A DNA stretch of 46,776 nucleotides from Thermoleophilaceae bacterium (GCA_040509835.1 JBEVKE010000133.1:1-46776); one strand, 5' to 3'; positions 1,370-38,096 are shown, counted from the first letter of the stretch. Numbers and translations: made by a program. The notes: generated from the sequence alone by a model not told the origin.

Positions 1370-1372
1370 CTG

Positions 1373-3556: not shown

Positions 3557-3558
3557 GA

Positions 3559-10554: not shown

Positions 10555-10558
10555 GCGA

Positions 10559-14467: not shown

Positions 14468-14469
14468 CT

Positions 14470-14605: not shown

Positions 14606-14636
14606 CCCGGAATGTTCTACCCCACGTCGGTCGGAA

Positions 14637-15741: not shown

Positions 15742-16251
15742 ATGGGCGAGACCGAGACGCGATCGATCGACACCGACCAGGCCGACCGCGAGGCCTCCGG
15801 AGCACGGCCATACGGCCGGTACCTGGAGGACTTCGAGGTGGGCGCGGTCTACAAGCACTGGCCGGCCAAGACCGTGACCGAGGCGGATGACCACCTGTTC
15901 TGCCTGCTCACGATGAACCACCATCCGCTGCACATCAACGACGTGTACGCGGCCGAGTCCCAGCAGGGGCGCAACGTCGTGGTGGGGCCGCTCGTGTACT
16001 CGCTGGCGCTCGGCATGTCGGTGGCCGACGTGTCCGGCAAGGCGATCGCCAACCTCGCCACCGAGGAGCTCCTGCACCCCGCGCCGGTCTTCCACGGCGA
16101 CACGCTGTTCGCCGAGTCCGAGGTGCTCGAGGTGCGCCCGTCGCAGTCCAAGTCCGACCGTGGCGTGGTGAAGGTGCACACGCGCGTCTTCAAGCAGGAC
16201 GGCACGCTGGTGGCTGAGTTCAAGCGCGCCGTGCTCGTCCCCCGCCGCTAA
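15742..16251 (+). CDS. MaoC-like (R)-specific enoyl-CoA hydratase/dehydratase (hotdog fold)
   Basis: Start at the ATG at 15742 (MGETETRS...). The long upstream in-frame extension from 15316 is antisense to mcl. Core: [40 protein letters not shown]...[20 protein letters not shown]. Confidence 0.85.
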
Positions 16252-17279
16252 CCGCGCCGTACGGACGCCCAGCGGGCAAGCCGCCCGCGCACCCTCTGCG
16301 CGAAATGGCCGGCGCGGCCGCGGGCCGTTCTGGGGATCACGAAGCTGTCCAGCCCGTGGTCCGCGGTGGCGAAGCGGGCCTTGTAGGGCTCCTCGCCCAG
16401 CAGGAACCTATAGGCGCGCATGCCGTCGTTGACGGCCTCTCTCACGGCGTGGACGGTGAGCACCCAGCCGACCGACTGGTGGTCGAAGGCCGGATCGCGG
16501 CCCGTCTGGTACGACCAGTCCGAGTCGCCGAACCGAAATCCGTACCAGGCCGCGGCCGGCCGTCCGTTCAACTCCGCGATCCAGAGCCGGAGCCAGCCGC
16601 GGTCCAGCGCGGCGTGCGCGAAGTCGCGGTGAAACGAGCGCGCGGGCTCGAGCTGAAACTCGGTCGCGCCCTCGCCCCAGCGCTTCGCGTGCAGCTCGAA
16701 GACGAGGTTCAGGTCCCGCTCCAGGCCATCGTGGTCGCTGGTGAGCCGGTAGCGCAGGTCGTGGTCCCGCAGCAGCCTCCGCTCGAACTTGCCGGCCTGC
16801 TGGCGGAAGTTCGAGCTCCTCGCGGCGAGGAACTCGTCCCAGTCCGAGGTCTCGATCTCGAGCACCGGGCTCGCCTCGTGAACGGCCGGCGCGGCGCCGA
16901 GCAGCGCCGGCCAGCTCTCCTCGCCAGCGAGCCGGTCACCCAGGAAGAGGTCATGCGGCACGTCGTGGAGCATGCTCCGCAGCTCGCCCCCGGCGACGGG
17001 AAGGTCGGCGGGCGCGCAGACGGCGCCGACCTGGTCGGCCACGCCACCCCCGACGAAGCGGAGCGTCCGTACCGCGCTGCCGCCCCGGTGAAGCGGCACG
17101 AGCGCGGCCACCTGGCCGTCCTGCCGCACGACGCCGAACGCCGGCTCCCGCCCGGCGCCGAAATGGCGCCACCAGGCGGCGGCGAACTCCCACGTGAGGA
17201 ACACGTTCCCGGACGCCGTCGCGAGCCTGTCCCAGTCCTCGCGCAGAGCCTCCAGCTCGCTCGGAAGTGCGGTGCTCAC
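16248..17279 (-). CDS. GNAT-fold acetyltransferase, CelD/BcsL (FemAB-like) type
   Basis: 343 aa. LTWEFAAAWWRHFG ... LNGRPAAAWYGFRFGDSDWSYQTGRDPAF ... YRFLLGEEPYKARFA matches the Acetyltransf_6/CelD pattern found in EPS clusters. Confidence 0.75.
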   Translation of the reverse strand: MSTALPSELEALREDWDRLATASGNVFLTWEFAAAWWRHFGAGREPAFGVVRQDGQVAALVPLHRGGSAVRTLRFVGGGVADQVGAVCAPADLPVAGGELRSMLHDVPHDLFLGDRLAGEESWPALLGAAPAVHEASPVLEIETSDWDEFLAARSSNFRQQAGKFERRLLRDHDLRYRLTSDHDGLERDLNLVFELHAKRWGEGATEFQLEPARSFHRDFAHAALDRGWLRLWIAELNGRPAAAWYGFRFGDSDWSYQTGRDPAFDHQSVGWVLTVHAVREAVNDGMRAYRFLLGEEPYKARFATADHGLDSFVIPRTARGRAGHFAQRVRGRLARWASVRRG

Positions 17280-18451
17280 GCCGTTCGTCCTCCAAGCCCA
17301 TAGAGCTCGAGGAGAGCGTCCGCGCGACGCTCCCAGCCGTATTCACGCTCCACGAGAGCCCGGGCGGCGGCGGCGATCCGCACGCGCTCGTCCGCGTCGG
17401 CGAGCAGCCTCGCGGAGGCCTCGGCGAGCGCGTCGGCTCCCTCGGCCTCGAGATAGTGGACGCGGTCCTGGGCGCCGACGATGCCGTCGATGCCGGCCCG
17501 GTTCGTGACCACCGGAGTTCCCGCCGCGAATGCCTCTAGCACCTTGTTCTTGATGCCAGATCCCGAGCTGGCGGGAAGGACCGCGACCGCGGCGCGATGC
17601 AGCTCGGCGGACATGCTCGGCACATCGGCGGCGACCTCGATGCCGTCCCGCCCCGCCAGGTCCCGCACGGCCGCGGCGGGCCGCGCCCCCGCGATGCGCA
17701 GCGAGGCCTCCGGGGCGAGCCGGCGAAGGCGCGGCAGCACCTCGAGCGCCACCAGCCGTGCCGGCGCCACGTTGTGGAAATAGCCGAGGTTGCCGAAGAA
17801 GATCGCGTTCGCCGCCCGCCGCGAGGGCTCGGCGTAGGGGAGGTCGTCGAGCGCGACCCCGTTGGGGATGACCGTCGCGCGGGCGAGTCCGGGCGACGCG
17901 AGCCTGTCGCGCTCCGAGACCACCGACGTCGTGTCGGCCGCGGCGGCCACGCGCGCCTCGTAGCGCGCCATCAGGCGCGCCTCGAGCGCGAATGCTGAGG
18001 ACGGGGGAAAGCGCGACCGGTTGGCCCGGCTCGCCATGTTCAGCGACAGCGCATCCACGAAGTCCAGGTGGACGTGCACGCCCGGCGGCGCGTGCCGCAT
18101 GTACGGCGCCATGCGCGCCAGCGTCACGTGCAGGACATCCGGCTCGAAGCCGCCCATCGCCGCGCGCACGACGTCGTGCATGCGGCCGTCGAGGTAGAGA
18201 CGCGTCTGGAGCGGGAGCAGGGGGTTCGGCGCTCGCAGGTTGGCCACGGCCGCCGGCAGCACTCCGCGCGGCACGGACCGCAATGCGACGCCCGGGAGCG
18301 AGGCGCCCGATTCGGCCCCAAAGCACACCAGCATGACGTCCGCCCGCGCCGACAACGCGCGTGCCAGGTGATACACGCGGACCTGGTCGCCGCGCGTAGG
18401 GGGCGCAGGGTTGCGCGGAGACAGCATCAGGAGGCGGGGCCGGCGGCTCAC
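17276..18451 (-). CDS. Glycosyltransferase family 4
   Basis: C-terminal GT4 motifs (SSGSGIKNKVLEAFAAGTPVVTNRAGIDGIV). The maximal ORF reaches 18529, but that N-terminal extension has atypically low GC3. The GTG at 18451 (VSRRPRLLMLSP...) or the ATG at 18427 is more plausible. Confidence 0.8.
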   Translation of the reverse strand: MSRRPRLLMLSPRNPAPPTRGDQVRVYHLARALSARADVMLVCFGAESGASLPGVALRSVPRGVLPAAVANLRAPNPLLPLQTRLYLDGRMHDVVRAAMGGFEPDVLHVTLARMAPYMRHAPPGVHVHLDFVDALSLNMASRANRSRFPPSSAFALEARLMARYEARVAAAADTTSVVSERDRLASPGLARATVIPNGVALDDLPYAEPSRRAANAIFFGNLGYFHNVAPARLVALEVLPRLRRLAPEASLRIAGARPAAAVRDLAGRDGIEVAADVPSMSAELHRAAVAVLPASSGSGIKNKVLEAFAAGTPVVTNRAGIDGIVGAQDRVHYLEAEGADALAEASARLLADADERVRIAAAARALVEREYGWERRADALLELYGLGGRTA

Positions 18452-18523: not shown

Positions 18524-20578
18524 GTGCACTTCTCCGGCTCATCCGCGCCGCGGCGGCAGCAGCAGCTCGTGCTGGCCCTGCCGGGGCTGATCGTCGTCGC
18601 AGGCGGCCTCCTGCTCGCCCTCGACGACGCCGGCTACCCGCCGACGATGTGGTACCCCGCGGCGCTCTTCGCGCTCGCCCTGCTCGCGGTAACCGTGATC
18701 GCGGCTCCGCCCGCGGGGCTCGGGCCCAGGGCCGTGGTGGTCGGCCTGTGCGCGTTCGCGGCGTTCGCCGTGATCGCGTATGCGTCGATCGCCTGGGCGG
18801 ATGCCCCGGGGGAGGCGTGGCACGCGGCGAACCGGATCCTGCTGTACGGGCTCGTCCTCGTGCTGGTCACGCTGCGCCCGTGGAGCACGGGCACGGCCAC
18901 AGCGGCGGTCGCGATGGTGGGGTTCGGCACGGCGCTGATCGCCGCGGGCATCCTCCTCGGCGGGGTCGTGAGCGACGATCCGGCGAACCTGTTCCAGGGC
19001 GGCCGCCTCGCCGAGCCGGCGGGATACCTGAACGCGACGGCCAACCTCTGGCTGATCGGCTTCTGGCCCGCTCTGTACCTCGCGATCCGGCGCCCATGGC
19101 CGGCCTGGGCCCGCGGCCTGGCGCTGATGGCGGCGACCGTGCTGCTCGAGATGGAGCTGCTGTCGCAGAGTCGCGGCGCCGTCATCGCCTTCGCGGCGAC
19201 CGCGCTCGTGTACGTCCTCGTAACGCCCCGCCGCTGGCCGGCGCTGTTCGCGCTCGGGGCGACGGTGGGCCTCGCGGCGCTCGCGTTCAACACCGTCGTA
19301 GACGTGCGGGACGCGGCTCAGGCCGCGGACCTGGGGCCCGCGCTCGACCACGCGGCTCGCGCGATCGCGCTCAGCGCCGCGGCCGCGTTCGTCCTCGGCC
19401 TGGCGGGCGGCCTTCTCGGCGCGAGGTCAAGGTCCGAGGTGGAGCGCCGGCCGTGGATCCCGCGTGCGGGCAACATCGCGCTCGCGGCCCTTGCCGTGGC
19501 GGGTATCGCCGCGGTCCTGCTCGTGATCGGGAACCCGAGCGACTGGGTGAACGCCCGGTGGGACGACTTCAAGAGCTCGGGCTACAGCAAGGTCGAGTCC
19601 GGGCATACCCGCTTCACCGGAGGGCTCGGGTCGAACCGCTACGACTTCTACCGCGTCGCGCTCGACCAGTTCGCCGACCACCCGGTCCTCGGCGTGGGCG
19701 GCGACAACTTCGCCGACGCGTACCTGCTGCACCGGCGCACGCTCGAGGCGCCGCGGCATCCACACAGCCTGGCGTTCCGCCTCCTGTCCCAGTACGGCGC
19801 GGTCGGGACCGCGGTGTTCCTCCTCTTCCTGGGCGGGTTCGTGACCGCGGTACTGCGCGCTCGCCGACGAAACAGCGTGGAGGGCGCCGCGCTCGTGGCG
19901 GCGGCCTTCGCATCCTTTGCCGCCTTCTTTTTCCACGCCCTCGTCGACTGGCTGTGGGCGTTCCCCGCCCTGGGAGTGCTCGCCTTCGCGATGCTCGGCA
20001 TCGCAAGCCGGACGGAGGAGGGTGCGGTCGAATCCGCCCCCGGCCGGCCACTTCCCTTCGTCGCGCGGGCCGCCTTCGGGGTCGCGACGCTGGCGGCCGC
20101 CGTGAGCCTCGCTCTGCCTGGGGTGGCGGCGCGCTACACGGCCTCCGCGTACGACCACTTCAGGGAGAATCCCGAGACCGCGATCGACCAGCTCGAGCGT
20201 GCCGCCGACCTCGACCCCCTGAGCGACGAACCGCTCGTCGCCGAGGGCGTCATCCAGCAGCGGCTCGGCCATCCCGACCGCGCGATCGACCCGCTGCGCC
20301 GTGCCGTCGAGCGCCGGCCCGGAAACTGGTTCGCGCACCTGGAGCTGGGCCTCGCCGAGTCCGCAACCGGGCACACACGCGCTGCGCTCGCGAGCCTGAG
20401 GGAGGCCACCAGCCTCAACCCGCGCCAGCCGCTGGCACGGAGGACCTACCGTCAGGTGCGCGCCGGCCGCCACATCGACGCCGCGGCCGTCGAGCGGAGG
20501 CTCTATCTCGGCCTCCAGGCACGGCTGCGTGCGACCGATCCAGACGCTGCGTCACACTCTGAGACGGATCAGCCTTAG
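18524..20578 (+). CDS. Wzy_C (O-antigen ligase / O-antigen polymerase superfamily) polytopic membrane protein with a C-terminal TPR domain
   Basis: The track ORF starts at 18068 but is antisense to the GT4 gene there. The first plausible starts are the GTG at 18524 or 18569, or the ATG at 18647. Multiple TM segments. Wzy_C-like loop LEMELLSQSRGAVIAFAATALVY. HPHSLAFRLLSQYG follows the periplasmic loop. The last ~140 aa are TPR-like (AIDQLERAADLDPLSDEPL...RAVERRPGNWFAHLELGLA...LREATSLNPRQP). Confidence 0.75.
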   Translation: MHFSGSSAPRRQQQLVLALPGLIVVAGGLLLALDDAGYPPTMWYPAALFALALLAVTVIAAPPAGLGPRAVVVGLCAFAAFAVIAYASIAWADAPGEAWHAANRILLYGLVLVLVTLRPWSTGTATAAVAMVGFGTALIAAGILLGGVVSDDPANLFQGGRLAEPAGYLNATANLWLIGFWPALYLAIRRPWPAWARGLALMAATVLLEMELLSQSRGAVIAFAATALVYVLVTPRRWPALFALGATVGLAALAFNTVVDVRDAAQAADLGPALDHAARAIALSAAAAFVLGLAGGLLGARSRSEVERRPWIPRAGNIALAALAVAGIAAVLLVIGNPSDWVNARWDDFKSSGYSKVESGHTRFTGGLGSNRYDFYRVALDQFADHPVLGVGGDNFADAYLLHRRTLEAPRHPHSLAFRLLSQYGAVGTAVFLLFLGGFVTAVLRARRRNSVEGAALVAAAFASFAAFFFHALVDWLWAFPALGVLAFAMLGIASRTEEGAVESAPGRPLPFVARAAFGVATLAAAVSLALPGVAARYTASAYDHFRENPETAIDQLERAADLDPLSDEPLVAEGVIQQRLGHPDRAIDPLRRAVERRPGNWFAHLELGLAESATGHTRAALASLREATSLNPRQPLARRTYRQVRAGRHIDAAAVERRLYLGLQARLRATDPDAASHSETDQP

Positions 20579-20594
20579 GAACCTGCGCAATTAT

Positions 20595-20667
20595 GGAATC
20601 TCCCGCTTAGAGTGTGAGATTCCGGGGTACCTAAGATCGGAATCTTCACGATGTTCGCAAGAATCCG
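20595..20667. promoter_or_regulatory. Two tandem inverted repeats built on GGAATCT (GGAATCTC-N13-GAGATTCC and CGGAATCTT-N12-AAGAATCCG) in an AT-rich intergenic island
   Basis: Read directly: arms at 20595..20602/20616..20623 (perfect 8 bp) and 20638..20646/20659..20667 (8 of 9 bp). The second repeat overlaps a possible -35 TTCGCA (20654..20659), with a -10 TACTCT (20678..20683) 18 nt downstream. Confidence 0.4.
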
Positions 20668-20781
20668 ACAGTGCCTGTACTCTCGGAGAGGACTCGCTGG
20701 CAAGGGGCCCGCGCCAGTCCCGAACCCCAAATCTCGAGGGCCCAGGACACAAGGGTTCGCGTTAAGGAGGACACCATCAGC

Positions 20782-21075
20782 ATGACAATCAAGACAAAGA
20801 CCCGGCTGGCTGGCGCAATCTGCGCGTTGGCAGTCGCGGGACTGGCCCCCGCGGCTCAGGCCCAGACCGCCGCGCAGCAGGGGTACGACGAGAGCGGCCT
20901 TCTGGGTAGCGTGGATCAGGGTGGCAGCGGACCGACCCAGAGCGTCAGCGGGAGCACCCAGGGTGGGTCGCTTCCGTTCACCGGGCTCGATCTCGGCATT
21001 CTCGTGGCGCTTGGCGGCACGGCGGCCGGTGCCGGGTACATGATGCGGCGCACGCTCCGCAACCCGGCTCAGTAG
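20782..21075 (+). CDS. Minimal LPXTG-type (LPFTG) cell-wall-anchored protein, 97 aa
   Basis: AAGGAGG RBS (20764..20770) upstream of the ATG at 20782. Signal peptide MTIKTKTRLAGAICALAVAGLAPAAQA, a Gly/Ser/Thr/Gln-rich ~37-aa stub, then LPFTG + LDLGILVALGGTAAGAGYMM + RRTLR, a canonical sortase sorting signal. Confidence 0.8.
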   Translation: MTIKTKTRLAGAICALAVAGLAPAAQAQTAAQQGYDESGLLGSVDQGGSGPTQSVSGSTQGGSLPFTGLDLGILVALGGTAAGAGYMMRRTLRNPAQ

Positions 21076-21103
21076 CCGAAGCACCCCAAACAGTCTGGTC
21101 GTG

Positions 21104-21130
21104 AAGGCCGCCCGGTGGGCGGCCTTTTCG
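21104..21130. terminator. Intrinsic terminator hairpin between convergent genes
   Basis: AAGGCCGCCC-GGT-GGGCGGCCTT (a perfect 10-bp stem) followed by TTTTCGTTT on the + strand. It lies between the LPFTG gene stop (21075) and the stop of the minus-strand phosphotransferase gene (21140). Confidence 0.75.
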
Positions 21131-21139
21131 TTTCCGGAC

Positions 21140-22618
21140 TCAGACCGACGCCGCGTCGGCCCAGTCGTCCACCCCGGTGGAGAGCGCCTCCGGCGGCGGG
21201 GGAAGCGGGTCGTAGCCGTGGATGAACGACACCCACTTGGGCTCGATGGAGTAGCGGCGATCGGCGAACACCGTGCGGAAGGTCTCGCCGATTATCGCGA
21301 GGTCGAACGCCATCGAACGGTGCTTGAGGTAGTAGAGGTCGTGCGACAGCTTCCACGCTGATCCCACGTCCGATCCCGCGTACCCGCATCGCACCTGCGC
21401 CCACCCGGTGAGGCCCGGCTTGAGGAGGTGACGGCGCTGATAGAAGGGGAGGACCTCCTCGAGCTGCTGGACGAATTCCGGCTGCTCGGGGCGCGGGCCG
21501 ACGAGGCTCATCTCCCCGCGCAGGATGTTGTACAGCTGCGGCAGCTCGTCGAAGTGGGTCCTGCGCAGAATGCGGCCGACCCGGGTCACGCGCGGGTCGT
21601 CGGGGTCGGCCCACTGCGCGCTCGGATCCGCGACCCTCATGGTGCGGAGCTTCCACAGCGTAAGCGTGCGGCCGGCCTCGCCGATGCGGGACTGCTTGAA
21701 AAAGACGGGGCCGCCATCCAGCTTGATCGCGAGGGCGCTCAGGAGAATGAGCGGCGCGGTGGCAAAGGCGGCAATCGTGGAGACGACGATGTCCACAGCG
21801 CGCTTCGATGCCGGAGCCACGGTCCGGAACTTCGGGTGCATGATGTACTGGAACCAGGCCGCGTTGATCTCGGCCACCGGCACGTGACCGAAGATGTCCT
21901 CGTAGAACGAGGACAGCTCCCAGAGGCGCACGGGCAGGTGGAGGCAGGTGGTCGATAGCTCCTCGAAGACGCTGAAGCGCGGCGCTTCGCTCGTGAGGAC
22001 AAGCAGGTCGATGTCATTCGTCTCGATCACGTCGGCAAGGCCGCCCAGCGCGCCTAGCGTCGGCACCTCGCCGTCCACGCGCGAGGGGCCGGCCGCGATC
22101 GCGATTCGACCCACCACCTGATACCCCGGGATGCCCACCAGGGCCAGCTCGCGCGCGACGTCCGTGGCGTTGCGCTGCGAGCCGATGATCGCGGTCCGCA
22201 GCGGGCCCTGGCGCGTGCTTCCGCCCGACAGGGAGCACGCGACGGAGGCGGAGGCCGCCGCGGTGGCTACAAGAATCATCTCGGCGGTCGAGAGCCCCGG
22301 CAGGCCGGTGACGGCGTTCACGAGCGTCAGCGCGCAGATACCGAGCAGCGGTGACAGCACCACCAGCGGGTTGCGCATGAGCGGGAGCAGGTTGGCCCAT
22401 GCCCGTCGCTCCGGCACGACGAACGCCGCGCACGCAAACGCGAGCGTGGTCAGCACCACGGCCTCGAAGGCCTCTTCGGCGAGCAGCCCCGCCGTGAGCG
22501 CGGCAACCGCCGGCACCAGCACGCGCTCCGAGAGCAGCGGACCCCTTTGGGCCGCGCGTCTGGGCGCGTGAACCGCGTGCAGCGGCCCGTCCGTCGTGCT
22601 GTCGGTGATGAGGCCCAT
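21140..22618 (-). CDS. Polyprenyl-phosphate sugar-1-phosphate transferase (WbaP/CpsE-type priming glycosyltransferase)
   Basis: 492 aa with N-terminal TM segments and a central Rossmann-like domain. C-terminal bacterial sugar transferase domain: FKQSRIGEAGRTLTLWKLRTM...DELPQLYNILRGEMSLVGPRPE...KPGLTGWAQV. Confidence 0.9.
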   Translation of the reverse strand: MGLITDSTTDGPLHAVHAPRRAAQRGPLLSERVLVPAVAALTAGLLAEEAFEAVVLTTLAFACAAFVVPERRAWANLLPLMRNPLVVLSPLLGICALTLVNAVTGLPGLSTAEMILVATAAASASVACSLSGGSTRQGPLRTAIIGSQRNATDVARELALVGIPGYQVVGRIAIAAGPSRVDGEVPTLGALGGLADVIETNDIDLLVLTSEAPRFSVFEELSTTCLHLPVRLWELSSFYEDIFGHVPVAEINAAWFQYIMHPKFRTVAPASKRAVDIVVSTIAAFATAPLILLSALAIKLDGGPVFFKQSRIGEAGRTLTLWKLRTMRVADPSAQWADPDDPRVTRVGRILRRTHFDELPQLYNILRGEMSLVGPRPEQPEFVQQLEEVLPFYQRRHLLKPGLTGWAQVRCGYAGSDVGSAWKLSHDLYYLKHRSMAFDLAIIGETFRTVFADRRYSIEPKWVSFIHGYDPLPPPPEALSTGVDDWADAASV

Positions 22619-22634: not shown

Positions 22635-24092
22635 TCACGTAGGCCGTCCATGAACGGCCCAGGCCCCCGCCGATGCACGTCGATGATAAACGCGGTCCGG
22701 ACGCTCCGCCATTGGCAACCGTACCGCTACCCCGTACATGATCGGTCCAAGCGCGAGCAGGAGCCAGAAGCGCACGTCGTTGCCGTCCGAGAGGAAGAAC
22801 GAGGCCGCCGCGAAGGCGATTATTCCCACCAGGCATCCGCGCGCCAGGTTCGCCATGTCGCGGTCGCTTTTCAGGTCGAACAGCCGCCCGGCACGCCATG
22901 CCGAGCGCGCGCAGCCGAGGACCAGGAGGATCCACAGGATCGCCCCGATGAACCCAGTCTCCGCGAGGAACTGGAGGTAGACGTTGTGCGCCACATGCGG
23001 CTTCTCCGCGATGTTGTGGACCAGCTCCAGCTTGCCCGGCTCGAGCGTGTACTTCGGTGCCTGCTCCACGAAGTTGTCGAGGCCCACGCCGTTGACCGGA
23101 TGGTCCTCCGCGATCCGCCACGCGACGGTCCACAGCGCGGTGCGGCCGGTGCCCGACGAGTCGAACTCGGAGATTCGCTGCCACGCGTGCGGGTTGAAGG
23201 AGAACCAGATCGCCGCAACGGCCACAAGCGTTCCGATCGTGATCGCGACCTGCGCCCGTCGTCCGGAGAAGAACAGGAGCGCGGCAACCGTCGCGATGCC
23301 GGCGGCCACCAGCGCGCCGCGTGACTCCGTGGCGGCGACCGTCACGGTCAGGACGCCCATCGACGCGACGAGCAGCAGATTGGCAACGGGGTGGCGCGGC
23401 CGCAGCAGGCCCGTGGCAAGGACGATCGCCGCGACCATCCCGGCGGCCACGTAGTTGGGGTCGTCGAGGAGCGACCCGAACCGCTGTCTGTCGGCCGCGG
23501 CCAGCGCGAGCGAATCCGACGAGGTGCTGAGCGATTGGCCGAGGATCCCGATCAGCGCGGAGAGCAGGGCTCCGACCACGAGCATCGCGACGAACAGTCG
23601 CGCCTGCCGCGGCGTCGAGATCGTCGTGACCGACACCAGGAAGGCGATACCGGCGAGCCACCACTGCCAGAGGTGGGCGATGCCGTTCTCGGGGTGAAGC
23701 GCCCAGCTCACCGAGAGGGTGATCCAGGTGAGGAGCACGAGCCCGAGCAGGATCAGGCGCCGGTGGAGCGCGAGGAGCGTCCGCGTCGCGGCGCCGCGCG
23801 CGCGCAGCGACGGCAACCAGGCGAGCAGGATCACCGCGGCGCCGGCCGTGGGCGCCGCCCCGACAAAGCCGAGCGGAGGGAGGAACGCGAACGGCACCCA
23901 GAGGATCACCGCGGCGGGCAGGTTGAGCACCGCCGGAATCACGAACAGCATTCCGAGCAGCAGCGCGGTGGCCTTCTGCAGACCCACGGCGGCGAACGCG
24001 GCGCAGACGGCGAGCAGGCCGAGGCCGAGCACGGTCAGCACCGCGGCCGGCGGGAAGGTCACGGCGGGTTGCCGCAGAGCGCGGGTTGTCAC
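22635..24092 (-). CDS. Wzy-type O-antigen/EPS polymerase (Wzy_C family) membrane protein
   Basis: Polytopic protein with a TESRGALVAAGIATVAALLFF loop motif and HPVNGVGLDNF...HVAHNVYLQFLAETG. Start set at the GTG at 24092, 2 nt after the upstream stop. The track ORF extends to 24245 and would overlap the kinase gene by about 150 bp. Confidence 0.8.
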   Translation of the reverse strand: MTTRALRQPAVTFPPAAVLTVLGLGLLAVCAAFAAVGLQKATALLLGMLFVIPAVLNLPAAVILWVPFAFLPPLGFVGAAPTAGAAVILLAWLPSLRARGAATRTLLALHRRLILLGLVLLTWITLSVSWALHPENGIAHLWQWWLAGIAFLVSVTTISTPRQARLFVAMLVVGALLSALIGILGQSLSTSSDSLALAAADRQRFGSLLDDPNYVAAGMVAAIVLATGLLRPRHPVANLLLVASMGVLTVTVAATESRGALVAAGIATVAALLFFSGRRAQVAITIGTLVAVAAIWFSFNPHAWQRISEFDSSGTGRTALWTVAWRIAEDHPVNGVGLDNFVEQAPKYTLEPGKLELVHNIAEKPHVAHNVYLQFLAETGFIGAILWILLVLGCARSAWRAGRLFDLKSDRDMANLARGCLVGIIAFAAASFFLSDGNDVRFWLLLALGPIMYGVAVRLPMAERPDRVYHRRASAGAWAVHGRPT

Positions 24093-24093
24093 G

Positions 24094-25641
24094 TCAGTGC
24101 GTGGAGCGCGTGGTCCGCTCGGGCACGGGCTCTTCGACGAACAGCTCGCGGCGCCGGTGGTGGCCGTACGCGTAGTAGCTGCTGGTCTGACCCGGGGTGT
24201 CGCCGACCACCAGGAAGCCCGCCGGATCGGTCCCTGTCCTGGCAAGCAGGTCGGCTGTCGTCGACAGGCCGACGCGATCCGAATTGCCGGGCCGGACGAC
24301 GATCACCACCTCGTCGACGAAGCCGAGCAGCCGCAGCGCGTCGCTGATCTCGCCGAGCGGCGGCGTGTCGATGATCACGTGATCGGCGAGGCTGCGCGCC
24401 TCAGCAACGAGCTGCGGAAGCCGGGCGTAGAGCGGGTCGAGGAGTATGGCGTCGCCCTGCAGGAGCTCCGTCGCGAGGACCGACACCGAGGGCAGCGAAG
24501 GCGCGGTGCGGAGCAGGGGGACGAGGTGATCCGGCGACAGGAGCTCGTTCAGGTGCACCGGGTCCGGCACCGCCAGCCGGTGTGCCACGTCAGCTTTCCT
24601 GAGGTCCAGATCGAGCAGGATGACGCGCTCGCCCGAGGCGGCCAGCGTGGCAGCCAGGTTGATCGCCGACGTGGTCTTGCCGTCTCCCGTGGAAGCACTA
24701 GTGACCATGAGGACGCGGCCGCCCTCATGGCTGCTGGGCGGCAGCTGGAGCAGGAGCGTGCGGCACGCCTCGCGAACCGCGGGCGCGACCGTCCACGCGT
24801 CCGTCGGGCGCGCGCGGCCGAGCTGCCGGCGTTGAAGCGGCACGCGTGCGAGTACCGGGAGCGGCAGGATGGACAGCGCTTCGTCCTCGTCCCGAATGCG
24901 CCGGTCGAGCAGCTCGAGCAGCACCGCGGCCGCGGCTCCGAGCGCGAGGCCGGCGAAGCCGGCGAGGACCAGGATGACCAGCGGGCTGGCGCCCGATGGC
25001 GAGGTCGGCACCTCGGCCGCCTGCGAGATCGAGAGCGTCGGGTCGTTGCCGGTGCCCACGTTCTCGAGCTGGTTGATGCGGTCCTCGAGCTGCGCCCCTG
25101 CCTCGGTGTTCGTCGATCCAAGCGCCTTCTGACGGGACTTGAGCTGGTCGAGCAGCGGGCCGACGTCGCGGTCGAGCACGTCGCGCCGAACCGCCAGCGT
25201 CTGTTTCGTGAAGGTGTTCGCGAGCTTGGCGGCCGTCTCTGCGTCGCCCGCGGACCCGGTCACGGCGAGGATGTTGCTCTCGCCCACGGGCTCGACGGTC
25301 ACGGCGTCCATCACCTGCTGGGTGGTCCAGTCCGGTCCAAGGATCTTCGCGGTCCGGCGCGCCGCCTCCGGCGACTCGACGAGGCTCGCGGCGGTCTGGA
25401 CGGTGCGCGTGGGGTCACCCGAGTCGCGCAGGAGCTGGAGTCCCCGGAAGGTCTGATCGTCCTGTGGCAGCGGGGTGACCAGTAGGTTCGCTGTGGCCTC
25501 ATACGAGGGATTCCGCCCCACGGCGAGCCACAGGAGGGCGAGCACGACGAAGCCGACCGTGGTCAGGACGACCAGCAGCCTGTGCGCACGCAGCGCACGC
25601 AGGTATGGACCAAGCGCGGGCTCGGCCGTGGGAGGATGCAT
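24094..25641 (-). CDS. Polysaccharide co-polymerase (Wzz domain) fused to a BY-type tyrosine autokinase
   Basis: N-terminal TM + Wzz-like periplasmic coiled region + second TM. Kinase domain with Walker A (VTSASTGDGKTTSAINLA), ILLDLDLRKA, and a C-terminal Tyr cluster (SSYYAYGHH). Start set at the ATG at 25641, because the upstream in-frame extension to 25749 has low GC3 (GAT, ACT, GGA, GAA, CAA, TAT). Confidence 0.85.
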   Translation of the reverse strand: MHPPTAEPALGPYLRALRAHRLLVVLTTVGFVVLALLWLAVGRNPSYEATANLLVTPLPQDDQTFRGLQLLRDSGDPTRTVQTAASLVESPEAARRTAKILGPDWTTQQVMDAVTVEPVGESNILAVTGSAGDAETAAKLANTFTKQTLAVRRDVLDRDVGPLLDQLKSRQKALGSTNTEAGAQLEDRINQLENVGTGNDPTLSISQAAEVPTSPSGASPLVILVLAGFAGLALGAAAAVLLELLDRRIRDEDEALSILPLPVLARVPLQRRQLGRARPTDAWTVAPAVREACRTLLLQLPPSSHEGGRVLMVTSASTGDGKTTSAINLAATLAASGERVILLDLDLRKADVAHRLAVPDPVHLNELLSPDHLVPLLRTAPSLPSVSVLATELLQGDAILLDPLYARLPQLVAEARSLADHVIIDTPPLGEISDALRLLGFVDEVVIVVRPGNSDRVGLSTTADLLARTGTDPAGFLVVGDTPGQTSSYYAYGHHRRRELFVEEPVPERTTRSTH

Positions 25642-25781
25642 CGACTGGCCTGAGGCGGGCTGCAAGCTCCGGTGAGTGTAGAGGCGGGGATAGCCGTTTT
25701 GCTCCAGCTTGCGGTGCGCTTCCATGGGTCCAGTATCGGCAGCCGGCACCCGCGCCTTTGATACAAGCCGCTTGTTCAGGC

Positions 25782-27014
25782 ATGCGACTCGCGTACATCG
25801 TCTCCCGTTTCCCTCACGCCTCCGAGACGTTCATCGCGCGCGAGCTGCGGGCGCTGGAGGGCGTCCGAGGGGACGAGGTCGAGCTGATGTCGCTGTTTCC
25901 GCCGGTCGACCCGAAGGTCCATCCCTCGGCCGCGCCCTTCGTGGACCGCCTCTTCCGGCCCGGCGTGGGGGAGGCGCTGGCGGCACTTGGCTGGTGGTCG
26001 CTCCGGCGGCCGTTCCGGCTTGCGACGAGCATCGGGATCATGCTCCGAGAGCACGTGCGGAGTCGCCGCGTCCTGCCGCGCGCGCTTGTCACGATCCCGC
26101 TGGCTGCGGCGCACGCGCGCGCGGTGCAGCGCGGCGTGGATCACGTGCACGCGCACTACGCGACCTATCCGGCGCTCGCGGCCTGGCTGTCATGGCGCCT
26201 GACCGGAACGCCCTACAGCTTCACGGCGCACGCGCACGACATCTTCGTCGACCAGAGCATGCTGAGGCGCAAGTTGGCGGATGCGGCCTTCACCGTGACG
26301 GTCTCCGATTACAACCGCCGCTTTCTCTCGGAGTACGGCGACCCGGCGCGGATCCACGTCGTGCATGCGGGGATCGACACCGCCGCGCAGCCGTTCAGGC
26401 CCCGATCCGTGCCGGTGGAGGGTCCGGTGCGCGCGCTCTGCGTTGCGAGCCTTCAGGAGTACAAGGGGCACGTCGTGCTGCTGGAGGCGCTGGCCGGGTC
26501 GCCAGTGCTCGAGCGCGTGGCGCTCGACCTCGTGGGCGGGGGCCCGCTGCGCTCGGGCCTCGAGAGCCGGGCGCGCGAGCTCGGCCTTGCGGACCGTGTG
26601 CGGTTCCACGGCAGCGCCACCGAGGACGCCGTGCGCGACCAGCTCGACCGGGCCGACCTCTTCGTGCTGGCGAGCATCGTGGCTCGGAGCGGTCAGATGG
26701 AGGGGCTGCCCGTCGTCCTGATGGAGGCGCTCGCCGCCGGCCTGCCGGTCGTCGCGACGAGACTGTCCGGGATCCCCGAGCTCGTGGCTGACGGCCAGAC
26801 CGGTCTCCTCGCCGCACCGGGCGACGCCGCCGCGCTTCGCGACGCGCTCGAACGGGTCGTTAGCGGCGACTTCCAGCCCGACCTGACGCAGGGGAGGGCC
26901 CTCGTCGAGGAGCAGTTCGAGGCGGCCGAGGCCGCCGCGCGGCTGCGCGAGCTGTTCGCGACGGCCCAGGGCGGGTTACAACAAACGTCCAGCACGTTGG
27001 CGACCACCACTTGA
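25782..27014 (+). CDS. Glycosyltransferase family 4 (WcaL-like)
   Basis: Start at the ATG at 25782 (MRLAYIVSRFPHASETFIAREL...). C-terminal EGLPVVLMEALAAGLPVVATRLSGIPELV motif. Confidence 0.85.
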   Translation: MRLAYIVSRFPHASETFIARELRALEGVRGDEVELMSLFPPVDPKVHPSAAPFVDRLFRPGVGEALAALGWWSLRRPFRLATSIGIMLREHVRSRRVLPRALVTIPLAAAHARAVQRGVDHVHAHYATYPALAAWLSWRLTGTPYSFTAHAHDIFVDQSMLRRKLADAAFTVTVSDYNRRFLSEYGDPARIHVVHAGIDTAAQPFRPRSVPVEGPVRALCVASLQEYKGHVVLLEALAGSPVLERVALDLVGGGPLRSGLESRARELGLADRVRFHGSATEDAVRDQLDRADLFVLASIVARSGQMEGLPVVLMEALAAGLPVVATRLSGIPELVADGQTGLLAAPGDAAALRDALERVVSGDFQPDLTQGRALVEEQFEAAEAAARLRELFATAQGGLQQTSSTLATTT

Positions 27015-30654: not shown

Positions 30655-30853
30655 GCCTGCCGGCGCGCGACCGCCGGCGCGCGGATGCCGACAGTTCGTC
30701 TGACCGAACCCCAAACCGGCACTTCTCGACAAGGGCACCCCCGCCGCGAGGCGGGTCCGCAAAGCCACGGGGCTCCTGACGGAGCCGGCCGGGCTGCCGA
30801 ACGAAGATCGCGTGAGCGGTGCCCAGACGTAGGCACGGAGGTGTCGAAGCGTC

Positions 30854-32349: not shown

Positions 32350-33864
32350 ATGACAGAAAAGCCACCCGACACTCGCATCGGCGCACGCACGCTGCGTGGC
32401 GCCTTCTGGGCGTACTTCTCGTACGTCGGCGGCCGGCTGGTGATTCTGGTCGCGACCTCGATCCTGGCGCGGCTGCTCACGCCCGAGGACTTCGGCATCG
32501 TGGGCTTCGCTCTGGTCTTCATGGCGCTGCTCGAGACCGTGAAGGACCTGGGTCTGGGTCAGGCGCTGGTCGCCAGCCGTCCACAGGACGTCTACGAGCG
32601 GGCGGACACCGTGTTCGTGGCAGGGGTCGGCCTCGGCGTGCTCATGAGCGCGATCGTGGCCGCGATCGCCCCGCTGGCGGCTGACTTCTTCGACGAACCC
32701 AAGCTGCTCGCCATCGTGCCCGTGCTCGGCCTGAACTTCCTGATCCGGTCGCTCGGCGCGACGCACTACGCCCTCGCCCAGAAGGAGATGCGCTTCCGCA
32801 CGCGCACGATCGCCGAGTTCTCAGACGTCTTCGTGCGCGGCACGGTCGGCGTCGTCCTGGCCCTCACGGGCGCCGGCGTGTGGTCGCTCGTGCTCGGCTA
32901 CGTGGCCGGCACGATCGCGCTCGTGATCGCGCTGTGGATCCTGGTGCCGTGGCGGCCCCGCCTGCGGCTCGACCGCCGGCACCTGCCGGGCCTGCTCAAG
33001 TTCGGGGGAACCCTGACGGGCGTGGACATCACGGCGGCGATCACGAACAACGCCGACTACCTGTTCGTCGGCAAGGTCCTCGGCCCCGCCGCCCTGGGCG
33101 TCTACACGCTCGCCTTTCGGCTTCCTGAGCTGGCGATCGTGAACGTGGCGACCGTGGCCGGCCTCGTGCTCTTCCCGGCGTTCGCGAACGTCCCGCGCGA
33201 GTCGCTCTCGCATGCGTACCAGGTCTCGCTCCGCTACATGCTGATGGTCTGCATGCCGCTGGCGGCAGGGGTCGCACTGCTCGCGGCGCCGCTCGTCGAG
33301 CTTCTGTTCGGGTCCCAGTGGGGCGGTGCCGTCGATCCGATGCGGCTGCTCACGGTGTACGCCTTCGCGGTGACCATCGGCATCCCGGCCGGTACGGCCT
33401 ACAAGGCGGTCGGCCGTGCCGGCGTCCTCCTAAAGCTGGCCATCCCGCGGACCATCATGCTGGTCGTCGGCGTCTGGATCTTCGTGCACAGCGGACTCAC
33501 CGCGGTGGCCGCGACCCACGCGGTGGTGGCCGGGCTCTTCTCGGTGATCGGCATCGCGCTCGCGTCGCGGCTCCTGGCGGTGCGCGGCAGAGACCTGCTC
33601 CGCCTGGGCGCCGCACCGCTCGTCGCCACGGCCGCGATGTCGGTGGTCGTGTTCGCGATCGATTCGCTCTTCGACTCGGCCCTGGTCAGCGTGCTCGCGG
33701 GCGCGGCCGCGGGCGCGGCGGTCTACCTGGCGGTGCTCAGCATGCTGGCGCGCGACGCCGTCGACGATCTGCGCACGAAGCTGCGGAGCCCGCAGGTGCC
33801 GGCCGAGGCGTCGGGCGAGCTCGATCCGCTGACGGTCACGCGCGAGACGGATGTGATCGCGTGA
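32350..33864 (+). CDS. Wzx-type polysaccharide flippase (MOP/PST superfamily)
   Basis: 504 aa with about 14 TM segments. N-terminus RTLRGAFWAYFSYVGGRLVILVATSILARLLTPEDFGIVGFALVF is typical of PST-family flippases. Confidence 0.85.
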   Translation: MTEKPPDTRIGARTLRGAFWAYFSYVGGRLVILVATSILARLLTPEDFGIVGFALVFMALLETVKDLGLGQALVASRPQDVYERADTVFVAGVGLGVLMSAIVAAIAPLAADFFDEPKLLAIVPVLGLNFLIRSLGATHYALAQKEMRFRTRTIAEFSDVFVRGTVGVVLALTGAGVWSLVLGYVAGTIALVIALWILVPWRPRLRLDRRHLPGLLKFGGTLTGVDITAAITNNADYLFVGKVLGPAALGVYTLAFRLPELAIVNVATVAGLVLFPAFANVPRESLSHAYQVSLRYMLMVCMPLAAGVALLAAPLVELLFGSQWGGAVDPMRLLTVYAFAVTIGIPAGTAYKAVGRAGVLLKLAIPRTIMLVVGVWIFVHSGLTAVAATHAVVAGLFSVIGIALASRLLAVRGRDLLRLGAAPLVATAAMSVVVFAIDSLFDSALVSVLAGAAAGAAVYLAVLSMLARDAVDDLRTKLRSPQVPAEASGELDPLTVTRETDVIA

Positions 33865-35940: not shown

Positions 35941-37136
35941 GCACGGACGGCGCCTCGTCGCCGCTCAGGTTCGTGACGCGAGGCTGGCGGAGGGTGGATG
36001 GCCGGCCGGCCGCGACTCGGCGAGCCATCGGGGCGCGGCTGCGCCACTCGAACGCGTATCTCGCCTGGTCCGACGCGGACACGCCCCGCCAGATCGTCCC
36101 GACCGCCAGACCCGATGTGGCCCGATGGGTGCGGCGCACGTTCGAGCCATGGGCGCGCCGGAAGCTCGACGCCGCCACTTGGAGCGCGCTCAGGGCCGGC
36201 TCTCTCGTCGTGGGCGAGGGACCCGGATTGGCCCAGCTCGGAGCCGAGGAGGCGCTCGGCCGGTCGCTCGACGGAGCGGTGCTGGGCTGCGTCTCGGCCT
36301 CCGGGCACGTCCAGGCCAAGCTCCTGTGCTTCGTGTTCGAGCGCGGCGAACGGGAGCCTTCGGTCGTGGTCAAGGGCATCCCGCTCGAGGGCGAGGGGAG
36401 TCGTCTCCTCGCGGAGGCGAGCGCGGTTGCGGCGATCAGGAAGCTGCTGTCGGGCGCGACCGCCGCGGCGCTTCCACCCGAGCCGGTCTGGGCGGGTGAC
36501 GTGGGCGGCCACGACGTGGTGGTCGTGGAGCCCGTGGACCCGCTGGCCGGGGCGACGGGGCACGAGGACCGCGATGCGGCCCTCGGGTGGCTCGCGCGCC
36601 TCCAGGACGAGACCGCACACGACGAGTGGGGGACCGACGCGGACCTCGCCTCGCTCGACGAGGTGCTCGAGTTCGCGTCGTCTGAGTCCGGCCTCGGCGC
36701 GGGGGCGCTCCGGACCATGTGGCGCGAGCAGTGGGATGACCTCGGGCGAACGACCATTCCCCGCTGCGCCGTGCACGGCGACTTCTGGCGCGGCAACCTC
36801 GCCGTCGATGGCTTGCGCCTCAGGGTGTACGACTGGGAATGGGCGGCGCTCAGCGGCCACCCGCTGTTCGACCCGTGGACCTACGAGCTCGCCGCGCTGC
36901 GGGGCCGCGCCGAATCGCCCCACGAGGTTGCCGCCGCGCTCGCGGACGCGTGCCGGCGCGTCGAGGCGCAGCTCGAGGGGCGCGGCCTCGATCGCCGCTT
37001 GGCGCGCGCATTTCTGCTGCCTGCGGCCGCGGACATCGCCTACCGGGTACGCCGGGTGCGCGGCACGCCGCCCGACCACGAGGAGCGGGCGCGCGCGCTC
37101 CTGGCAGGGGCCGCGCGCCTAGTCTCCGGCGGCTAG
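35937..37136 (+). CDS. Aminoglycoside-phosphotransferase/choline-kinase-like (APH fold) kinase
   Basis: The GTG at 35937 is coupled to the microprotein stop. Catalytic loop VHGDFWRGNLAV and metal-binding VYDWEWA match the HGDxxxxN ... DWE pattern of the APH family. Confidence 0.7.
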   Translation: MSTDGASSPLRFVTRGWRRVDGRPAATRRAIGARLRHSNAYLAWSDADTPRQIVPTARPDVARWVRRTFEPWARRKLDAATWSALRAGSLVVGEGPGLAQLGAEEALGRSLDGAVLGCVSASGHVQAKLLCFVFERGEREPSVVVKGIPLEGEGSRLLAEASAVAAIRKLLSGATAAALPPEPVWAGDVGGHDVVVVEPVDPLAGATGHEDRDAALGWLARLQDETAHDEWGTDADLASLDEVLEFASSESGLGAGALRTMWREQWDDLGRTTIPRCAVHGDFWRGNLAVDGLRLRVYDWEWAALSGHPLFDPWTYELAALRGRAESPHEVAAALADACRRVEAQLEGRGLDRRLARAFLLPAAADIAYRVRRVRGTPPDHEERARALLAGAARLVSGG

Positions 37137-38096
37137 CGCGCGGTCGACCACCTCGAGCAGCCTCTCCACGTAGCGCTCGGGGCCGAAGCGCGCGAGCGCG
37201 TCGGCGCGGGCCCGCTCGCCGAGCGCGGCCACCTCCCCCTCGTTCGCGGGGTCGAGCACCCAGTCGAGCGCTTCGTGCATGGCGCGCGCGTCAGCGGGCG
37301 GCACCACCAGGCCGGTCCGCCCGTGCTCGACGTATTCCCGGGCGCCGAGCGAGTCCGTCACGATCACCGGCTTGCCGAGCACCATCGCGTTCAGATAGCT
37401 CTGCTGGCCGGCGCTTCGATCGCCGCGCGGCTCCAACGCCACGACGATCACCGACGCTCTCCTGAACGCCTCGTCGTACGACGGCGGGTCGAGTGGGCTC
37501 AGACGCACGTTGGCGGGCACTTCGGTCCGCTCGTAGGTCCTGCTCGCGATCGTGACCTCCGCCGTGAGACCGCGGGCGGCCTCGACGAGCGGGCCGTAGT
37601 CCCGGAGCGAGTCACCGCCGGCGAAGACGCCGCCGTCGCGCGGCGGCACCTCCTCCACGTCCGCTTCGTCGAGCACCCAGTGGAACGGCGTCACGTGCAC
37701 GCGAGCCGGGGGCACGCCCCACGTCGCGGGGAAAAGCCGCGCCTCCGCCTCCGACAGCACGCAGTAGTGAGCGCCCCCGTGGCCGAGGCCCCGCACCGCG
37801 TACCGCCGGACCCGCCCCTCGAATGAACCGGCTTCGGCCTTCCAGGTGGCGTCGGCGAGCACAACCGCCGGCGGCCGGCGGCGGCGGGCGATCAGCGCGG
37901 CCGCAAGCTGGTCCGGCCTGAGCGAGCCGTTCAGCACGACGGCCTCGTACCGGCCCGCCGCTCGCACCAGCTTCGCGACGAGCTGCCGGCGGGGCACCGA
38001 GCTCGGGTCGATCACGTCGGCGCGCGCCATCCACGCGCGCCGGCGGCGGTAGGGCAGTGTCGTGAGGAAGCGCGGAGCGGCTCCCGCCGCCGTCAT
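37119..38096 (-). CDS. Glycosyltransferase (GT1/GT4-like, GT-B fold)
   Basis: 325 aa. C-terminal LGKPVIVTDSLGAREYVEHGRTGLVVPPADARAMHEAL motif. The ATG overlaps the sortase stop (ATGA, 38093..38096). Confidence 0.75.
   Translation of the reverse strand: MTAAGAAPRFLTTLPYRRRRAWMARADVIDPSSVPRRQLVAKLVRAAGRYEAVVLNGSLRPDQLAAALIARRRRPPAVVLADATWKAEAGSFEGRVRRYAVRGLGHGGAHYCVLSEAEARLFPATWGVPPARVHVTPFHWVLDEADVEEVPPRDGGVFAGGDSLRDYGPLVEAARGLTAEVTIASRTYERTEVPANVRLSPLDPPSYDEAFRRASVIVVALEPRGDRSAGQQSYLNAMVLGKPVIVTDSLGAREYVEHGRTGLVVPPADARAMHEALDWVLDPANEGEVAALGERARADALARFGPERYVERLLEVVDRALAAGD

Follow-up and report, generated by a model that had tools for sequence, protein, structure and literature searches.

We analysed a 46,776-nucleotide stretch of DNA from a Thermoleophilaceae bacterium (GCA_040509835.1 JBEVKE010000133.1:1-46776; the whole stretch is called the window, and its G+C content is 71%), focusing on a 97-amino-acid protein that ends in an LPFTG sorting signal (the mini-protein) and is encoded beside a membrane protein with a Wzy_C domain and a tetratricopeptide repeat (TPR) tail (Wzy_C-TPR). 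A gene map guided by third-codon-position G+C (GC3), together with Pfam and NCBIfam scans, placed both genes in what is, by its gene content, a Wzx/Wzy-type polysaccharide locus extending from ~16.2 to 38.7 kb of the window (Table 1). The locus opens with genes for a FemAB-like GNAT and a GT4 glycosyltransferase, followed by those for Wzy_C-TPR, the mini-protein, a priming phosphoglycosyl transferase, a second Wzy_C protein, a Wzz/BY-type tyrosine kinase (BY-kinase), several GT4 enzymes, a Wzx flippase, another GT4 enzyme and a sortase; a phosphoenolpyruvate carboxykinase (PEPCK) gene lies divergently beyond it.

Translation of the mini-protein gene (MTIKTKTRLAGAICALAVAGLAPAAQAQTAAQQGYDESGLLGSVDQGGSGPTQSVSGSTQGGSLPFTGLDLGILVALGGTAAGAGYMMRRTLRNPAQ) bore out the layout given in the initial annotation, which had listed a signal peptide, a Gly/Ser/Thr-rich stub, LPFTG, a hydrophobic segment and an RR tail. 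The signal peptide (amino acids 1-27, with a cleavage site between AQA and Q) has a K/R n-region and a hydrophobic core; its pattern is kept across the alignment of relatives, and AlphaFold2 (AF2) modelled a helix at amino acids 3-32. It is followed by a GY motif (amino acids 33-48) in which G34-Y35 is invariant, a variable Gly/Ser/Thr spacer leading to S63, the sorting signal GSLPFTGLD (S63, then LPFTG at amino acids 64-68, nt 20971-20985, then LD), a transmembrane helix at amino acids 68-93 and the basic tail (MRRTLR). With a signal peptide, a pentapeptide, a hydrophobic segment and a basic tail, the mini-protein has the sequence hallmarks of an LPXTG sortase substrate. The AF2 model contained only the signal and anchor helices, amino acids 33-67 being coil with a pLDDT of ~52-55, and the stub is predicted to be intrinsically disordered. 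No model in the Pfam and NCBIfam scans matched the mini-protein. We considered a lipoprotein signal peptide and rejected it, since Ile precedes Cys14 and the Cys is not conserved.

The expression signals noted in the initial annotation were likewise recovered from the sequence, the G+C profile and folding. The G+C content falls to 51-63% over 20550-20800, compared to ~74% in the flanks, and the intergenic region upstream of the mini-protein open reading frame (mini-ORF) is ~200 bp long. When seven related loci were aligned, the leader varied, but the TGTACTCTCGG box (also written TGTACTCT) and GTT-AAGGAGGAC were invariant, consistent with the mini-ORF having its own promoter and ribosome-binding site. 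Downstream, the 70-nt stretch 21076-21145 folds at -34.3 kcal/mol (z = -3.76; none of 200 shuffles was equally stable), and the hairpin at 21103-21127 is followed by UUUUCGUUU. A simple terminator scan called nothing downstream of the mini-ORF, a result that we set aside because direct folding gives a strong hairpin and a U-tract. The 200-nt leader contained no riboswitch or known RNA at Rfam gathering thresholds.

The mini-protein belongs to a large family, and its conservation, on which the initial annotation had made its proposal depend, proved extensive, with synteny strongly conserved. A word-index search found 64 homologues, of which ~40 are 57-79% identical and 94-102 amino acids long, and a profile search against 1.84 billion representatives gave 514 clusters at E<=1e-10 (3167 at E<=1e-3). 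Of the 150 best matches listed, almost every one is a full-length protein of 90-140 amino acids. Members are annotated at source as 'hypothetical protein', and as far as sampled the family is confined to Thermoleophilia. The invariant positions in the alignment are G34-Y35, L-P-F-T-G-L-D and a few Gly/Arg in the anchor, and GSLPFTGLD is retained throughout the members analysed. In all 208 members analysed, a Tyr lies no more than 25 residues from the signal-peptide core; this is the sole Tyr before LPFTG in 189 members and is preceded by Gly in 170. The spacer between this Tyr and LPFTG has a median length of 36 amino acids, is rich in G/S/A/D/P/T, and contains no Lys in 155 of the 208, which makes a pilin-like polymer unlikely; we rejected that candidate. 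Judged by these features, the family consists of conserved Sec-exported disordered peptides with a C-terminal LPFTG sorting signal.

The adjacent protein was described in the initial annotation as a Wzy_C protein with a TPR tail, and Pfam agreed: the Wzy_C domain (PF04932) scored 51.7 bits against a gathering cutoff of 31.7, and C-terminal TPR families also matched, the TPR domain spanning amino acids ~550-667. More than 606 homologues are annotated as 'O-antigen ligase family' or 'TPR repeat protein'. A model that AF2 built from 40 sequences (pLDDT 90.7, pTM 0.91) was used in a fold search of the PDB, in which the top match was WaaL (7tpg_B; E 2.9e-4; target-normalised TM-score 0.63). This O-antigen ligase (7TPG) was the only membrane-protein fold match, and the C-terminal domain resembled the peptide-binding TPRs of SGT, RPAP3 and OGT. 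A PDB profile search with the Wzy_C-TPR alignment returned TPR proteins only; the membrane domain needed the fold search because its sequence similarity is too low for a PDB sequence match.

The invariant residues of Wzy_C-TPR (R161, R217 within QSRG, R372-Y373-D374, E408, P410, H414 and D475-W476) are predicted to cluster in external loops. H414, invariant in 40 of 40 sequences, stands at the end of the 336-415 loop, and is the putative equivalent of PglL H349 or WaaL H337. The topology was derived from helix counting and the positive-inside rule: eleven helices precede the 336-415 loop and four follow it, and Arg occurs in every predicted cytoplasmic loop (for example RARRR at 445-449). An extra helix at 512-545, combined with these positive-inside loops, would place the TPR domain outside the cell, where the catalytic loop is also predicted to lie. 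Thus modelled, Wzy_C-TPR appears to share the traits of a protein O-oligosaccharyltransferase (O-OTase): a Wzy_C domain with an external His loop, a C-terminal TPR domain and an adjoining putative acceptor gene.

We scanned the Wzy_C-TPR alignment against one genome per GTDB species, which returned 43 loci (related loci are designated by L and a number). Forty of the matches carry Thermoleophilia names (Thermoleophilaceae, Solirubrobacteraceae, Gaiellaceae, Patulibacter), two records are titled only 'Actinomycetes bacterium' and two only 'Actinobacteria bacterium', and one locus labelled Pseudomonadota (L040) is probably misbinned. A GY protein adjoins Wzy_C-TPR in ~36 of the 43 loci. An LPFTG mini-ORF lies directly 3' of the Wzy_C-TPR gene in 24 loci, to which a frameshifted copy (L019) and an upstream VPFTG copy (L051) can be added, and in six loci the contig ends before the expected position of the mini-ORF. 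The L051 member (7197-7712, minus strand) is divergent: it is encoded upstream of Wzy_C-TPR but on the other strand, the spacer between its Tyr and the motif is very short (EDAYCEGCSALHQKQVPFTG), and it contains two Cys; a sortase gene lies downstream on the opposite strand. The L019 mini-ORF (12308-12484) is frameshifted within a poly-Gly G-run, and the sortase and Wzy_C-TPR genes of L005 (7089-9827) are broken by frameshifts; in both cases, homopolymer sequencing errors, not pseudogenes, are the most likely explanation.

Ten of the loci form one Solirubrobacteraceae clade (L010-L014, L021, L032, L041, L044, L049), in which the gene after Wzy_C-TPR encodes a protein of 150-190 amino acids (for example L011 12203-12778). 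This variant has a signal peptide, PLLSGYGGPGxGxQAIxGSTLLGG and a long Gly/Ser/Thr tract; a degenerate 'LGISGGD' replaces LPFTG, and the transmembrane anchor is retained. No sortase was found within +-10 kb in any of these ten transmembrane-type loci, in contrast to 20 of 26 LPFTG-type loci (Fisher p = 3e-5). The transmembrane-type loci form a monophyletic group whose position in the tree is nested within the LPFTG clades. The partnership of GY motif and Wzy_C-TPR stays constant while the type of anchor varies.

We also surveyed metagenomes from the side of the mini-protein, which gave 80 further loci, 39 of them with at least 1.5 kb upstream. Wzy_C-TPR is encoded immediately upstream on the same strand in 32 of the 39 and elsewhere in the locus in two more. 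Three of the five exceptions (L063, L080, L086) abut a priming transferase gene; the other two (L066, L073) had no match to Wzy_C-TPR or the transferase. Since this adjacency persists where the sortase is absent, the constant core, as judged from gene order, is the GY-peptide, Wzy_C-TPR and the priming transferase, with sortase linkage common but not universal. By the same measure, the family is genetically locked to a WaaL-fold protein and a priming transferase in Wzx/Wzy-type loci of Thermoleophilia, and the coupling of stub peptide, Wzy_C-TPR and (often) sortase is strong. In 938 kb of DNA from the window and related loci, mini-proteins were the only open reading frames with a sorting signal, although this is a weak proxy for a genome-wide census.

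The flanks of the locus are conserved as well. Many Thermoleophilaceae share a tight cassette of sortase, Wzy_C-TPR, mini-protein and transferase genes next to PEPCK, and contigs with distant relatives of the mini-protein (30-45% identity) have the order PEPCK (minus strand), sortase, Wzy_C (~700 amino acids), mini-protein, Bac_transf and exopolysaccharide (EPS) genes. The sortase gene lies divergently beside PEPCK in the window and in L005, L006, L018, L019, L025-L031, L035, L038, L042, L047 and L048. This flank indicates that the locus occupies a conserved chromosomal site and has a variable glycosyltransferase interior, much as O-antigen or capsule loci do. Orthologues of the FemAB-like GNAT gene lie beside the sortase gene in four loci of one clade (L028, L030, L045, L046, at about 4.9-6.6 kb); the equivalent model in exosortase systems is 'pepcterm_femAB'.

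Table 1. Features of the polysaccharide locus, in window coordinates
Feature	Position	Strand	Evidence or remark
FemAB-like GNAT (Acetyltransf_6), left edge of locus	16248..17342	-	PF13480 102 bits
Membrane protein of 684 aa with Wzy_C and TPR domains, proposed to be a glycan ligase or protein O-oligosaccharyltransferase	18524..20578	+	
-10-like promoter box TGTACTCTCGG	20676..20686	+	~95 nt upstream of mini-ORF start
Ribosome-binding site AAGGAGG	20764..20770	+	11 nt before ATG; AAGGAGGAC invariant in 7/7 aligned relatives
Mini-protein coding sequence, 97 aa	20782..21075	+	ATG 20782, TAG 21075
Intrinsic terminator, 11-bp hairpin + U-tract	21103..21135	+	Between convergent mini-ORF and priming-transferase gene
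Priming phosphoglycosyl transferase (Bac_transf)	21140..22618	-	PF02397 202 bits; mini-ORF neighbour in relatives too
Second Wzy_C protein	22635..24302	-	PF04932 84 bits
Wzz chain-length determinant fused to BY-type tyrosine kinase	24094..25830	-	PF02706 + PF13614; TIGR01007
c-di-GMP-I riboswitch	30724..30801	+	Rfam RF01051, 57.3 bits, above gathering; inside EPS locus
Wzx-type flippase	32350..33864	+	PF13440 258 bits
GT4 glycosyltransferase	37119..38096	-	Pfam; coupled to sortase
Sortase	38093..38743	-	PF04203 112 bits

The translational coupling of the sortase to a glycosyltransferase, reported in the initial annotation, held up: the stop codon of the sortase gene overlaps the ATG of the GT4 gene at 37119-38096 as ATGA. 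Orthologues suggest that the true start of the sortase is GTG 38701. Its catalytic residues, His (AGHRTTY), Cys (LSACHP) and Arg, are conserved, and the nearest NCBIfam class is class E (NF033747), at 129 bits, which is under the cutoff of 160. Class E is the housekeeping sortase class in Actinobacteria, and its typical substrate motif is LAXTG; the mini-protein carries LPFTG. The divergent PEPCK gene starts at 38773 (the pair occupies 38093-40578). In agreement with the initial annotation, no LytR-CpsA-Psr (LCP) gene was detected: PF03816 matched no GC3-supported open reading frame of the window, and none appeared in the Pfam lists of the related loci inspected.

The locus encodes two Wzy_C proteins, and we considered which of them acts as polymerase. 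The second Wzy_C gene (22635-24302), which like the c-di-GMP riboswitch (30724-30801) described below was not in the initial annotation, forms an operon with the Wzz/BY-kinase and priming transferase genes. Because this is the classical position of a polymerase, its product is likely the Wzy polymerase; it also matches TIGR03097 ('putative O-glycosylation ligase, exosortase A system-associated') over its full length, though below threshold. At least 18 related loci, spanning every locus architecture, have a second Wzy_C gene, usually adjoining the kinase gene. Wzy_C-TPR, in turn, lies in the conserved flank, the downstream glycosyltransferase sets differ among loci, and the protein is 35-40% identical across families with different sets. 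Polymerases normally track the repeat unit. Wzy_C-TPR, which stays constant despite differing glycosyltransferases, thus seems to behave more like a relaxed-specificity ligase than a repeat-unit-specific polymerase.

We propose, at a confidence that neither favours nor disfavours the claim, that the 97-amino-acid protein is a dedicated carrier peptide, O-glycosylated by the adjacent Wzy_C-TPR and then anchored by the sortase. In this model, the priming transferase and GT4 enzymes would build an undecaprenyl-pyrophosphate (Und-PP)-linked glycan, Wzx would flip it over the membrane, and the second Wzy_C would polymerise it under control of the Wzz/BY-kinase. The external TPR domain of Wzy_C-TPR would hold the membrane-tethered peptide while the enzyme transfers the glycan en bloc to a peptide hydroxyl, for which Tyr35 of the GY motif would be the prime candidate and Ser/Thr of the spacer the alternatives. 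The sortase would then cut LPFTG between T and G and join the glycopeptide to peptidoglycan, such that the polysaccharide would be bound to the wall via a linker of ~40 residues. In the Solirubrobacteraceae clade, where no sortase gene is nearby, the carrier would remain membrane-anchored by its transmembrane helix. The initial annotation had already cast the stub as such a carrier, and conserved adjacency, a WaaL fold with a predicted external TPR domain, and a sortase in 20 of 26 LPFTG-type loci give its view partial support; the glycosylation itself we infer. A more specific proposal we put forward tentatively, leaning slightly against it as it stands: that Thermoleophilia fix polysaccharide via a ~40-residue peptide whose invariant Tyr is loaded by a TPR-bearing WaaL-like O-OTase and which the locus sortase anchors, that this 'mini-proteoglycan' replaces LCP ligases, and that a sister lineage keeps a membrane-anchored lipoglycan substitute. 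Within the library searched, no paper was found to describe a module of LPFTG mini-protein, Wzy_C-TPR and sortase.

Several observations weigh against the carrier model. The initial annotation had tied a mini-LPXTG open reading frame, a Wzy_C-TPR gene and a sortase gene together within EPS loci; linkage of the mini-ORF, Wzy_C-TPR and the priming transferase held, but of 22 metagenome loci whose upstream sequence extends 3.5 kb or more, only 6 have a sortase gene there, and four metagenome loci with 10 kb on each side had no sortase. Moreover, because the transmembrane-type clade is monophyletic and nested, the association of sortase with LPFTG rests essentially on one evolutionary event. The only cultured organism matched, Patulibacter defluvii DM4 (L020, NZ_JAWZSQ010000022.1), has a Wzy_C-TPR homologue of 42% identity, preceded by Mrp/Nuo antiporter-like genes and followed by a LuxR-type response regulator, with no mini-ORF or sortase within 10 kb; since the mini-ORF does not adjoin the enzyme gene, it is not an obvious experimental host. 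As to the enzyme, PglL_A and Wzy_C_2 are absent from Wzy_C-TPR (Pfam, E<=0.01), Wzy_C/WaaL-like domains alone cannot identify O-OTases (PMC12645811), and the Wzy_C domain alone cannot separate ligase from polymerase. In ~23 loci of at least 19 kb, the search within +-10 kb detected only one Wzy_C, and L005 looks complete with a single one; in such loci, polymerisation could fall to the TPR protein, or the glycan could be left unpolymerised. The argument from the lack of an LCP gene is weak, because one could lie elsewhere in the genome and a secreted EPS needs none. Finally, Tyr is suggested as the glycosylation site by analogy only, and we infer not just the glycosylation but also the Tyr site and the wall linkage of the peptide.

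In the main alternative, Wzy_C-TPR would act as a polysaccharide polymerase or co-polymerase, or would ligate glycan to an acceptor other than protein, such as peptidoglycan, lipid II or a membrane lipid. The mini-peptide would then be an accessory; as a wall-anchored ligand of the TPR domain, it could position the enzyme or regulate it. The ~23 loci with one Wzy_C within +-10 kb, among them the apparently complete L005, fit such a role, as do a domain that is not diagnostic of ligase activity, TPR domains that also serve complex assembly, and a best fold match, WaaL, that is itself a lipid-acceptor ligase. Nevertheless, we regard it as rather unlikely, given that a second Wzy_C lies beside Wzz/kinase not only in the window but in all types of locus, that Wzy_C-TPR keeps 35-40% identity across families despite differing glycosyltransferase sets, and that a disordered peptide that is anchored, keeps a single Tyr invariant and has an S/T-rich spacer suits an acceptor more than a regulator.

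Instead of using peptidoglycan, the sortase might couple the peptide directly to the polysaccharide, or to the lipid-linked precursor of the latter, making the peptide a cap or cross-linker of the EPS; the nucleophile would be a glycan amino group, possibly installed by the FemAB-like GNAT. The translational coupling of sortase and glycosyltransferase, the GNAT gene in the locus and beside the sortase gene in L028, L030, L045 and L046, and a polysaccharide deacetylase gene in related cassette loci, which could free sugar amines, are all compatible with this idea. We nonetheless think it very improbable: we know of no sortase that uses a glycan nucleophile, the GNAT gene is absent within +-10 kb of most cassette-type loci, and neither the invariant pairing with Wzy_C-TPR nor the transmembrane-anchored variant lacking a sortase would be explained. 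Least probable of all, in our estimate, is that the adjacency is mechanistically meaningless, with a small surface peptide and a housekeeping sortase merely sharing a conserved neighbourhood beside PEPCK with the EPS locus. It is true that the sortase gene adjoins the housekeeping PEPCK gene in most relatives, that the sortase scores nearest class E, and that many LPFTG loci have no nearby sortase. However, the mini-ORF keeps Wzy_C-TPR, the priming transferase or both as neighbours in loci from which sortase and PEPCK are distant or missing (the window, L001, L009, L060, L071, L085 and L112, and the transferase-abutting exceptions L063, L080 and L086), the GY-motif partner outlasts loss of the sorting motif, and the 938 kb of related DNA holds no other protein with a sorting signal. 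The carrier-peptide model is, on a balanced judgement that could fall either way, the most economical reading.

Regulatory elements and other genes of the window were also recorded. The c-di-GMP-I riboswitch lies directly upstream of an open reading frame of 487 amino acids (30833-32296, plus strand) that had no Pfam or NCBIfam match, with the Wzx flippase gene next; its position in mid-locus makes part of the EPS locus appear to be under c-di-GMP control. Two ydaO (c-di-AMP) riboswitches lie outside the locus, at 3410-3562 (plus strand, 84 bits) and 14464-14608 (minus strand, 80 bits). The former precedes a secreted protein ending at 4134, in which YVYGGGH...YDCSG suggests an NlpC/P60-like wall hydrolase, and the latter precedes a secreted CAP/SCP-domain protein (13961-14488, minus strand). 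An open reading frame at 1358-3361 (plus strand) with high GC3 encodes 668 amino acids with ~13 predicted transmembrane helices and had no Pfam match at E<=0.1. Just outside the locus, a 1352-amino-acid protein (6607-10662, minus strand) combines GSDH, PKD, two F5/8 type C and Laminin_G_3 domains and has no sorting signal.

In the general view, LCP phosphotransferases attach the wall glycopolymers of Gram-positive bacteria, and we know of one protein-mediated case, GspA of Actinomyces oris, which still uses an LCP enzyme. If the carrier model is true, a minimal carrier peptide, its WaaL-fold ligase and a sortase would make up a second, independent route of glycopolymer attachment, and Wzy_C-type protein O-glycosylation, possibly on tyrosine, would extend into Actinomycetota. 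It would also give a function to more than 500 unannotated protein clusters from Thermoleophilia, which are abundant in soil and barely cultured, and a natural acceptor tag of ~40 residues with a relaxed-specificity ligase would be of interest for glycoconjugate engineering.

Among known systems, the closest in fold is WaaL (7TPG), in which a conserved His likewise ends a large external loop and external Arg residues are conserved. WaaL has 12 transmembrane helices, compared to 15 in Wzy_C-TPR, where one of the extra helices would place the TPR domain externally; moreover, we would expect no lipid A-core acceptor in this Gram-positive lineage. The pairs TfpO(PilO)-PilA, TfpM-pilin and PglS-ComP resemble the window in gene order: TfpO, TfpM and PglS are encoded beside their single substrates (PMC12645811), with the gene for a Wzy_C/WaaL-like enzyme immediately beside that for its cognate substrate, and they accept Und-PP-linked O-antigen or capsule units. 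These systems are Gram-negative, glycosylate type IV pilins at or near the C-terminus, and have neither sortase nor TPR. PglL and PglS carry PglL_A and Wzy_C_2, both of which Wzy_C-TPR lacks, as do TfpO and TfpM (PMC12645811).

The S-layer systems offer a Gram-positive parallel. WsfB of Paenibacillus alvei and WsaB of Geobacillus stearothermophilus are predicted O-OTases with a Wzy_C domain, proposed to transfer a long Und-PP-built polysaccharide onto a surface protein, and WsfB, like PglL, has a C-terminal TPR (PMC2943079). The proposed acceptor residues are Tyr, Ser or Thr; the WsfB-dependent polysaccharide of P. alvei, 22-25 repeats long, is attached to tyrosine by an O-linkage (PMC2943079). 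Their loci also encode a WbaP-like priming transferase and GT4 enzymes, and the likeness of Wzy_C-TPR to WsfB is one of described domains rather than of aligned sequences. Their acceptor is a large self-assembling S-layer protein held non-covalently; the acceptor proposed here would be a minimal peptide in which a single Tyr is invariant and whose anchoring depends on sortase or on a transmembrane helix. The PEP-CTERM/exosortase (EpsH) system is a Gram-negative analogue whose sorting signal is embedded in EPS loci (PMC1569441), with a C-terminal tripartite signal and its processing enzyme in the same locus. In PEP-CTERM loci, these are accompanied by a tyrosine kinase, a chain-length determinant, a TPR protein, a FemAB-like GNAT and a Wzy_C 'putative O-glycosylation ligase', and accessory genes in the window gave sub-threshold TIGR03097, TIGR03018 and PrsT-like matches to exosortase-system models. 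The window differs in having a true PF04203 sortase with an LPXTG signal, in a monoderm, and one substrate per locus rather than many.

The protein-linker idea of the initial annotation is not without precedent: A. oris has a sortase-anchored glycopolymer carrier, GspA, an LPXTG protein onto which LcpA, encoded next to it, loads glycopolymers ahead of the sortase step (PMC6381275). The proposed module would share with GspA/LcpA/SrtA a Sec-exported LPXTG-type protein, loading at the membrane, a lipid-PP-linked donor, a sortase step and a transferase gene beside the substrate gene. In A. oris, however, the transferase is an LCP phosphotransferase, whereas here a WaaL-fold Wzy_C-TPR adjoins and the window has no LCP gene; GspA is a ~25-kDa protein, compared to a disordered stub of ~40 residues; and the glycan locus of GspA is not known, whereas here the putative carrier lies inside its glycan locus. 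If the carrier model holds, the module would combine two known kinds of system, protein-mediated sortase-dependent glycopolymer anchoring as in A. oris and Wzy_C-type O-glycosylation as proposed for the S-layer proteins.

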